Below, in pieces: positions 342-1,159 of a stretch of DNA of 1,486 nucleotides. This stretch comes from Escherichia coli (GTDB lineage: Bacteria > Pseudomonadota > Gammaproteobacteria > Enterobacterales > Enterobacteriaceae). Where the stretch lies: assembly GCF_003334255.1 (NCBI RefSeq), contig NZ_QOWU01000156.1. The stretch is one strand, 5' to 3'. The translations under genes and the position numbers were made by a program. Positions within the stretch are counted from its first letter, which is position 1. Each line of letters begins with the position of its first letter. The notes beneath the pieces are model-generated. The model searched no databases and was not told where the DNA came from. It saw only the letters and a program-made list of their open reading frames with translations.

Positions 342-1159
342 AACTGGAAGATTTACCGAAATACTACTCCCCAAAATCCCCCGGCCTGACTGATGCATCG
401 GCCTCAACGTCGAAAGATGCGCTGAGTATCACTGATGTGATGGCCGCGCAGGGCATGACACAGAATCGGGCTGAGATGGGGTTTTCTGCGTTCCTTGGGA
501 AAATGGGCATTAGTATGAATGACAGAGAGCGGGCAACAGAATTGCTGACAGAATATGCACTCAGTCGGTGTGATCGCGTGGCGGCGTTAAGAAAACTCCC
601 GGCAGAAATAAAACCGGCAGTGATGCGTATTATGGCTTCGTATGCGTTTGAAGATTATGCCCGTAGCGCGGCGAGCAAAAAACAGTGCCCCTGCTGTCAC
701 GGAAAAAAATTTATTGAAAGCGAGGTTTTTACAAACAAGGTTCAGTATCCGGATGGCAAGCCGCCAGTATGGGCAAAGTGTACGAAAGGTGTGTATCCGT
801 CTTACTGGGAAGAATGGAAAAAAATTCGGGAGGTGGTGAAAGTTTCTTGTCCTGAATGTAAAGGGAAGGGGGAGATTTCCACTGCCTGTAAAGACTGCCG
901 TGGGCGTGGTGTCGCCATTCATCGTGAAGAGTCGGTAAAACGTGGTATGCCTGTTATCAGAGACTGCCAGCGTTGTGGTGGTCGTGGCTGTGAAAGACTA
1001 CCATCAACGGAGGCATTTAATGCCATACGCAAAGTGACGAGTGCTATCACGCTTGATACGTGGAAAAAATCAGTGAAACGCTTTTACGATACGTTGGTGG
1101 TTCGGTTTGACATTGAAGAGGCATGGGCGGAGCGGCAGTTAAAGAGGGTAACGCGATAG
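338..1159 (+). CDS. Q: Late-gene antitermination protein Q, lambda-Q type, 273 aa, with an enlarged Cys-rich zinc-binding region
   Basis: ATG at 338-340, stop TAG at 1157-1159. N-terminus (MKLEDLPKYYSPKSP...TDVMAAQGM...) and C-terminus (...TLDTWKKSVKRFYDTLVV...RVTR) closely resemble lambda Q as I recall it (MRLESVAKFHSPKSP...TDVMAAMGM... and ...TQPTWSRTVKPLYDALVV...NAVTR). CxxCxGxG-type repeats are present. A possible SD (AGG, 328-330) lies 7 nt upstream. A lambda-pR'-like promoter follows directly downstream, as expected for Q. Confidence 0.85.
   Translation: MKLEDLPKYYSPKSPGLTDASASTSKDALSITDVMAAQGMTQNRAEMGFSAFLGKMGISMNDRERATELLTEYALSRCDRVAALRKLPAEIKPAVMRIMASYAFEDYARSAASKKQCPCCHGKKFIESEVFTNKVQYPDGKPPVWAKCTKGVYPSYWEEWKKIREVVKVSCPECKGKGEISTACKDCRGRGVAIHREESVKRGMPVIRDCQRCGGRGCERLPSTEAFNAIRKVTSAITLDTWKKSVKRFYDTLVVRFDIEEAWAERQLKRVTR

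Follow-up and report, generated by a model that had tools for sequence, protein, structure and literature searches.

A7 runs in the lambda-Q-type antitermination gene of an Escherichia coli prophage: very probably incidental lysine coding with occasional loss of one base

Lambda Q (PDB 4MO1 and 7UBJ–7UBN; Pfam PF03589) is the closest described counterpart of the antitermination protein considered here. The two proteins share a C-terminal CxxC…CxxC zinc motif, and their genes occupy the same position, after rusA and before the late/lysis genes. Homopolymers in coding sequences are described from several other settings. In contingency loci (poly-G or poly-A; Neisseria, Haemophilus, Campylobacter, Bordetella), a length change in the homopolymer switches the gene off. 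In dnaX of E. coli, the heptamer A_AAA_AAG lies close to a stop codon in the −1 frame. Homopolymer indel hotspots and the pseudogenisation of prophage genes are commonplace. The gene described below, which contains two A7 runs, has in common with these last two the one-base losses in A6–A7 runs, their occurrence on several backgrounds, the "frameshifted" label given by PGAP, and the inheritance within lineages.

The stretch analysed (the window, 1486 nt) matches the chromosome of E. coli strain G1/2 (NZ_CP060083.1) at 100% identity, within a lambdoid prophage. It contains the 3' part of rusA, an ORF of 273 aa, and an intergenic region with terminator-like hairpins. The main features of the locus are as follows.

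3–341: 3' part of rusA, from the ORF list
338–1159, plus strand: gene of the 273-aa lambda-Q-family antitermination protein (hereafter Q), from the ORF, Pfam, PHROG, PDB, Foldseek and the G1/2 annotation
1242–1263: terminator-like hairpin with a T-run

The annotated order in G1/2 is racR, replication genes, DUF968, rusA, antitermination protein, a 65-aa ORF, DNA methyltransferase, tRNAs, holin, lysozyme and an Rz-like gene. A single genome can match the window at as many as 10 places, some of which may not be copies of Q, since the end of rusA is part of the window too. The ATG of Q overlaps the stop codon of rusA (ATGA; 333–341), and an A6 run (333–338) adjoins the ATG directly. The overlap and the A6 run leading into the ATG suggest that translation of Q may be coupled to that of rusA.

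The family assignment of Q rests on several concordant matches. PF03589 (Antiterm) matches Q twice, at aa 24–111 (E 5.6e-22) and at aa 178–265 (E 1.1e-26). The match to phrog_127, "anti-termination protein Q-like", has an E value of 3e-111, and the phmmer match to lambda Q in the PDB (7UBM) one of 2.9e-39. The AlphaFold (AF2) model built from 109 homologues has a mean pLDDT of 81, and the only PDB structures it retrieves with Foldseek are those of lambda Q (7ubn_Q, E 4.6e-13). Judged from the family profile, the homology in sequence and predicted fold, and the prophage position with a terminator downstream, the ORF at 338–1159 is a lambda-Q-type antiterminator.

The intergenic region 3' of Q (1160–1265) contains TTGATT (1165–1170), a 16-nt spacer and TG-n-TAAATT (1184–1192), the −10 of which we take to be identical to that of lambda PR'. 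Terminator-like hairpins follow at 1193–1209 and at 1242–1257, the latter with a T6 run. The region looks like the arrangement of PR', qut, short leader RNA and tR', and is a putative target of Q. A consensus promoter scan made no call at TTGATT/TAAATT in 1160–1265 (8/12 matches). Rfam gave only a match at chance level (ar14, E 0.2), with a score well short of the gathering cutoff. The small ORF farther downstream (65 aa, MLKQQDMTETARVVFNEL…; 1386–1486 in the window, 10386–10583 in L213) is annotated as hypothetical in most genomes and as "TrmB family transcriptional regulator" in one. The 33 aa of it present in the window have no match in NCBIfam.

Alignment with lambda Q (phmmer against PDB) divides the protein into three parts. 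Residues 1–113 align to lambda Q 1–113, and residues 183–273, which include the zinc motif CxDCxGxG…CxRCxGxG, align to lambda Q 117–207. Between these two homologous parts lies an insertion of about 69 aa that lambda Q lacks.

677–883, plus strand: segment without a lambda Q counterpart (aa 114–182), seen as a gap in the phmmer alignment to lambda Q

The insertion adds two CxxCxGxx motifs, C117/C120 and C171/C174, which flank a variable Lys-rich stretch. CPCCHGKK opens the insertion and CPECKGKG closes it. With the lambda-type motifs CKDCRGRG and CQRCGGRG added, the protein has four CxxCxGxx motifs. None of the eight cysteines, C184, C187, C210 and C213 among them, varies in 109 homologues. 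The middle of the insertion (aa 133–165), in contrast to these cysteines, varies more than any other region of the protein in the homologue alignments, with indels. In the AlphaFold model, two long beta strands are predicted in the insertion, at 125–136 and 159–170 (pLDDT 74–86). The four-motif architecture is the usual one in prophages of Enterobacteriaceae, with thousands of sequences of 260–277 aa. It is present in all homologues of this length, whose sources include Escherichia, Salmonella, Klebsiella, Enterobacter, Citrobacter and Serratia. No paper on the insertion at aa 114–182, or on frameshift alleles of Q, was found in the literature.

The four motifs score weakly as the DnaJ-type CXXCXGXG domain (PF00684, E 4e-5). 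The cysteines could be paired around the zincs in a lambda-like manner (3+4, plus a new 1+2) or in a DnaJ-like manner (1+4 and 2+3). For the Cys-rich part, Foldseek gave only a non-significant match to DnaJA2 (E 0.44), and a DnaJ-like two-zinc topology is not established by it.

Several homologues differ in length. Two of 260 aa (P0088 and P0113) lack 17 residues in the region of aa 133–165, and others have 5 additional residues. One of 337 aa (P0001) contains an internal duplication of the insertion region. In-frame internal deletions are seen in P0006 (243 aa, without aa ~83–112) and P0011 (213 aa, without aa ~62–121). The last three forms are probably assembly artefacts or products of recombination between repeated prophage copies of Q in one genome.

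The gene contains four Lys-Lys dipeptides, each encoded by a run of A.

677–682, plus strand: A6 run, K114 K115; AAA AAG in about half of the relatives
703–709, plus strand: A7 run (run 1), the last base of GGA (G122) and AAA AAA (K123 K124), followed by TTT (F125)
818–824, plus strand: A7 run (run 2), after TGG (W160), AAA AAA (K161 K162) and the first base of ATT (I163)
1064–1069, plus strand: A6 run, K243 K244 (the fourth KK run); A7 in 16/80 relatives

The first-pass annotation had placed A7 tracts at 703–709 (G-K-K-F) and 818–824 (W-K-K-I), and both positions and codons are exact. Nowhere else in the window does one base occur seven or more times in a row. Both lie, as had been proposed, inside the apparent insertion of Q, within the residues absent from lambda Q.

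The number of these runs is what composition predicts. The window has two A7/T7 runs, against 1.22 ± 1.44 in 200 dinucleotide-preserving shuffles, 68 of which contain two or more. When synonymous codons of the gene are permuted, with its protein and codon usage kept, 1.03 runs of at least seven A arise on average, and the probability of two or more is 0.23. Lysine is encoded by AAA at 22 of 27 codons and by AAA AAA in all four KK dipeptides. Two A7 runs exist because every KK is written as AAA AAA and two of the four adjoin another A, that of the preceding GGA or of the following ATT. Lysine makes up 13 of the 69 residues of the insertion (19%), compared with 6.9% elsewhere. The earlier suggestion that the tracts are a by-product of lysine-rich composition is borne out by the chance-level count, by this lysine content, and by the in-frame substitutions in relatives described next.

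Tract lengths were compared among 80 prophage copies from IMG/VR with 93–100% protein identity. The alleles at run 1 (site 1) and run 2 (site 2) are as follows.

Site 1, A7: 35/80
Site 1, A5 (GGG GAA AAA, G-E-K): 38/80
Site 1, A6 (GGG AAA AAA): 4/80
Site 1, interrupted: 3/80
Site 2, A6 (AAA AAA GTC or GTT; mostly GTC, Val): 59/80
Site 2, A7: 18/80
Site 2, in-frame A8 (AAA AAA AAT): 3/80

All length differences among these 80 relatives are in-frame substitutions and not slippage. K123/K124 and K161/K162 are not conserved in sets of 19 and of 109 homologues, in contrast to the invariant flanking cysteines. In distant homologues, positions 123–124 are usually E-G, A-G, S-G or Q-G, as in the canonical CxxCxGxG, and positions 161–162 vary freely. 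The alignments indicate no selection for a homopolymer at either site. An invariant tract length without truncated variants, which would have spoken against slippage, is thus not what is seen across prophage copies: the lengths vary, and truncated forms occur.

The consequence of a frameshift is set by two stop codons.

715–717, plus strand: stop codon (TGA) of the −1 frame, two codons past run 1; an A insertion or a −1 ribosomal shift at run 1 would give a product that stops here (…HGKK-IY*, 126 aa)
837–839, plus strand: stop codon (TGA) of the +1 frame (ORF 642–839); reached when either tract has lost one A

Loss of one A gives a product of 166 aa at either run, because the same TGA at 837–839 is reached from both. 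The products of real alleles were read too, and have this length. Gain of one A is predicted to give 126 aa at run 1 and 172 aa at run 2. All these products lack C171/C174, C184/C187, C210/C213 and the C-terminal helices, that is, the entire part homologous to lambda Q 117–207. The annotation had predicted that a frameshifted Q would end ahead of the inner zinc motifs, and this holds for the 166-, 126- and 172-aa forms, all of which lose C184/C187 and C210/C213. From what is known of lambdoid Q proteins, the 166-aa fragment would be unable to antiterminate.

Frameshifted alleles were suggested as a thing to look for, and they are present, as one-A losses at both sites. Exact variant queries of 87 nt proved too long for the polymorphic flanks, the wild-type site-1 query matching only 1 of 80 loci; the variant searches used queries of 44–63 nt and IUPAC patterns. 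Among 5,426 complete E. coli genomes, site 1 is found about 935 times as exact A7, twice as full-length exact A6 (this count of 2 leaves aside as many as 16 partial matches of 100% identity to the A6 query), and never as A8. The two complete genomes carrying the A7-to-A6 change are those of UM146 and MLI104K2, in which PGAP annotates the gene as a "frameshifted" pseudogene and the neighbouring genes are intact. In IMG/VR, site 1 is A7 at no fewer than 120 loci, A6 at 4 and A8 at none. One-A loss at site 1 thus concerns about 0.2% of the complete E. coli genomes with the A7 allele and at most 3% in IMG/VR.

At site 2, the A7 form has no A6 or A8 indel variants in IMG/VR or in the complete genomes, of which at most 42 have exact flanks. 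Deletion is seen here in the A6 form. PHROG splits the protein exactly at run 2: phrog_25523 (166 positions) matches aa 1–163 of Q, and phrog_19003 (114 positions) matches aa 160–273. A 166-aa cluster of 76 member sequences (P0055) ends with …EEWKKSGRW. The DNA of five carriers of the P0055 type reads TGGAAAAAGTCAGGG, which is the common site-2 A6 allele minus one A. The A6-to-A5 allele is found in one IMG/VR contig, and with the TCG flank of the known carriers it has no exact match in the complete genomes. One-A gain alleles were found at neither tract in IMG/VR or the complete genomes. The phage GenBank collection holds only 7 related records, with no split gene among them. The tracts had been called modestly slippage-prone, and one-A deletions at both tracts in public genomes, rare as they are, agree with that description.

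Other frameshifts occur in the same gene. Five are seen among about 108 complete Q genes from 120 IMG/VR loci selected solely by A7 at site 1: a deletion in G3, an insertion in G4, a 2-nt deletion and, in two alleles whose fourth KK run is A7 (L200 and L094), loss of one A from that run. At least 7 deletion alleles fall in the single 7-nt run at site 1, and a comparable number of frameshifts is spread over the other ~815 nt; per base, this is a strong enrichment. That run 1 collects about as many frameshifts as the remainder of the gene is normal homopolymer behaviour. Frameshifts are found elsewhere in the gene too, and the A7 tracts are therefore hotspots and not unique switches. In the run equivalent to 1064–1069, one-A deletions are seen in L200, L094, L081, L083 and L086. 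The products of L094 and L200 are C-terminally altered Q proteins of 256 and 267 aa.

Are the deletion alleles genuine? They could be nothing other than homopolymer errors of sequencing or assembly, with tracts that are invariant in nature. Several carriers are indeed old draft assemblies (the DEC series, Shigella sonnei 53G), the draft of S. sonnei 53G (L086) has three indels that all lie in A runs, and three loci (L082–L084) also show a split in the adjacent DUF968 gene. Against this, the 166-aa product of the UM146 type is found in 24 contigs, with the identical allele recovered from ten or more independent sequencing runs, a metagenome assembly and two closed genomes, and the genes beside it are intact in most places. 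The 166-aa product of the DEC/O157 type is found in 20 contigs, including the closed genome AP019708.1 and a Logan assembly. The DNA has A6 at 20/20 loci retrieved for these two types of products. Within a lineage, genes with the deletion allele differ by only 1–3 SNPs, as inheritance predicts. The deletion alleles are mostly real, and a part of the calls may be homopolymer sequencing errors; that errors account for all of them is very unlikely.

Between lineages the differences amount to 50–100 per 821 nt (29–112 per 1.4 kb in another comparison), and at least 4 divergent gene backgrounds carry the deletion. The site-1 deletion recurs on divergent backgrounds, and it therefore has either more than one origin or a history of transfer, by recombination, from one mosaic prophage to another.

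In the allele of S. sonnei 53G (L086; ADUU01000022.1, Q at 1501–2262), run 1 is shortened from A7 to A6, and a compensating 1-nt insertion, GTGTACG to GTGTAACG, lies 78 nt downstream. About 26 residues of the insertion are replaced by sequence of the +1 frame, after which the frame is restored. A third one-A deletion lies near the C-terminus of Q. This Q is either a decaying gene or a product of homopolymer sequencing errors.

Recurrent, inherited deletions at one run raise the question of whether Q is a contingency locus, in which selection would favour the A runs as slip-strand switches, so that Q, and hence the late genes and lysis, could be reversibly turned off and on in the host population. 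Inactivation of Q would shield the host from lysis. The same run has lost one A on several allelic backgrounds, a third A run of the gene (the equivalents of 1064–1069) behaves alike, and the per-base enrichment at run 1 could be read as a switch. However, contingency loci usually keep a tract of at least 8–9 nt across relatives and show gain and loss variants at appreciable frequency. Here the tract is only 7 nt long, is changed by substitutions to lengths between A5 and A8 among close relatives, and encodes KK residues that the family does not conserve. The indel alleles of the tract are losses without exception, neither an A8 insertion allele nor any hint of reversion was found, and off alleles make up about 0.2% of the complete genomes with the A7 allele. 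The run count is that expected by chance. Like the known contingency loci, the window has a coding homopolymer in which a length change switches the gene off. Unlike them, its tract is short and unconserved, it shows losses only, and the off state is rare. Reversible switching of Q by these runs is thus highly improbable, slightly more so than the error reading above.

It can also be imagined that the A6–A7 runs at 703–709, 818–824 and 1064–1069 jointly serve as evolvable "off buttons", with which hosts repeatedly disarm lambdoid or Stx-type prophages, the Q knock-outs being positively selected domestication and not neutral decay. If so, the recurrent knock-outs of Q at A runs would be positively selected events of prophage domestication. 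The idea is as unlikely as the sequencing-error reading.

Recoding is the other way in which the runs could be used. Run 1 could support programmed −1 ribosomal frameshifting as in dnaX, or transcriptional slippage, and give a 126-aa N-terminal fragment beside full-length Q. The run lies in the exact register X_XXY_YYZ (A_AAA_AAA), and the stop at 715–717 comes two codons later in the −1 frame, as in dnaX. The resemblance to dnaX ends there: run 1 lacks the A-site AAG, the upstream SD-like element, the downstream hairpin and the conservation. The heptamer is missing from 45/80 close relatives, which mostly have GGG GAA AAA. The 81 nt downstream (710–790) fold no better than shuffles (z = +0.21), and no GGAGG-like SD element is present within 20 nt upstream. 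Ribosomes of E. coli shift much less readily on A_AAA_AAA than on A_AAA_AAG (PMC5009743). Run 2 is out of slippery register (G_AAA_AAA / A_AAA_ATT), and the sequence after it (825–905) folds with z = −1.0 relative to shuffles. Of the features expected for −1 frameshifting, run 1 therefore has the heptamer register, and the stimulatory elements and the conservation of the site are not found. Where transcriptional slippage has been described in bacteria, the runs have about 9 A or T (Atkins et al. 2016, PMC5009743), and the runs of 7 nt here are shorter than that. Programmed −1 frameshifting at run 1 is rejected, with no downstream structure, no SD-like element, no conservation and a weak heptamer, and recoding of either kind is the least credible of the alternatives considered, with next to no chance of being correct.

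The +1 frame is open between the two runs (ORF 642–839), and could be taken for a segment for "shifting out and shifting back". It is open in 83% of synonymous permutations, and is better regarded as a matter of chance or decay. The only allele that uses this frame is that of S. sonnei 53G (P0008/L086), and it re-enters the original frame by the separate 1-nt insertion at ~781 and not at run 2.

The A7 runs are thus very probably incidental coding of Lys-Lys, weak hotspots of one-base loss that sporadically inactivate Q in a few E. coli lineages. Lys-Lys is written with the preferred AAA, and one adjoining A completes each A7. The runs sit in the Lys-rich, fast-evolving middle of the extra zinc-motif module and very probably have no function as tracts. 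Like any A6–A7 run, they may at times lose one base during replication. Such a loss leaves a 166-aa Q that lacks C171/C174 (the second of the outer Cys pairs), the zinc site of the lambda Q type and the C-terminal helices, and that presumably no longer switches on the late genes of the prophage. Dead alleles of this kind are passed on in a few E. coli lineages, very probably as the usual decay of prophages. The tracts, their variability, the frameshifted alleles and the frequency of these alleles are shown directly, while replication slippage as their origin and the loss of antitermination are inferred. Compared with ordinary homopolymer hotspots, nothing sets this Q apart: the frequency is about 0.2%, and the tract is not maintained. 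The phenomenon is ordinary and already understood, and shows no sign of phase variation or programmed recoding.

The significance of these runs beyond annotation is very little. Gene callers split or truncate a Q with a one-A deletion into pieces of 166 aa and of 108 or 114 aa, and the pieces have even become separate PHROG families. Prophages with such a Q are probably unable to activate their late genes. For Stx-type phages with this Q backbone, loss of one A would affect predictions of inducibility.
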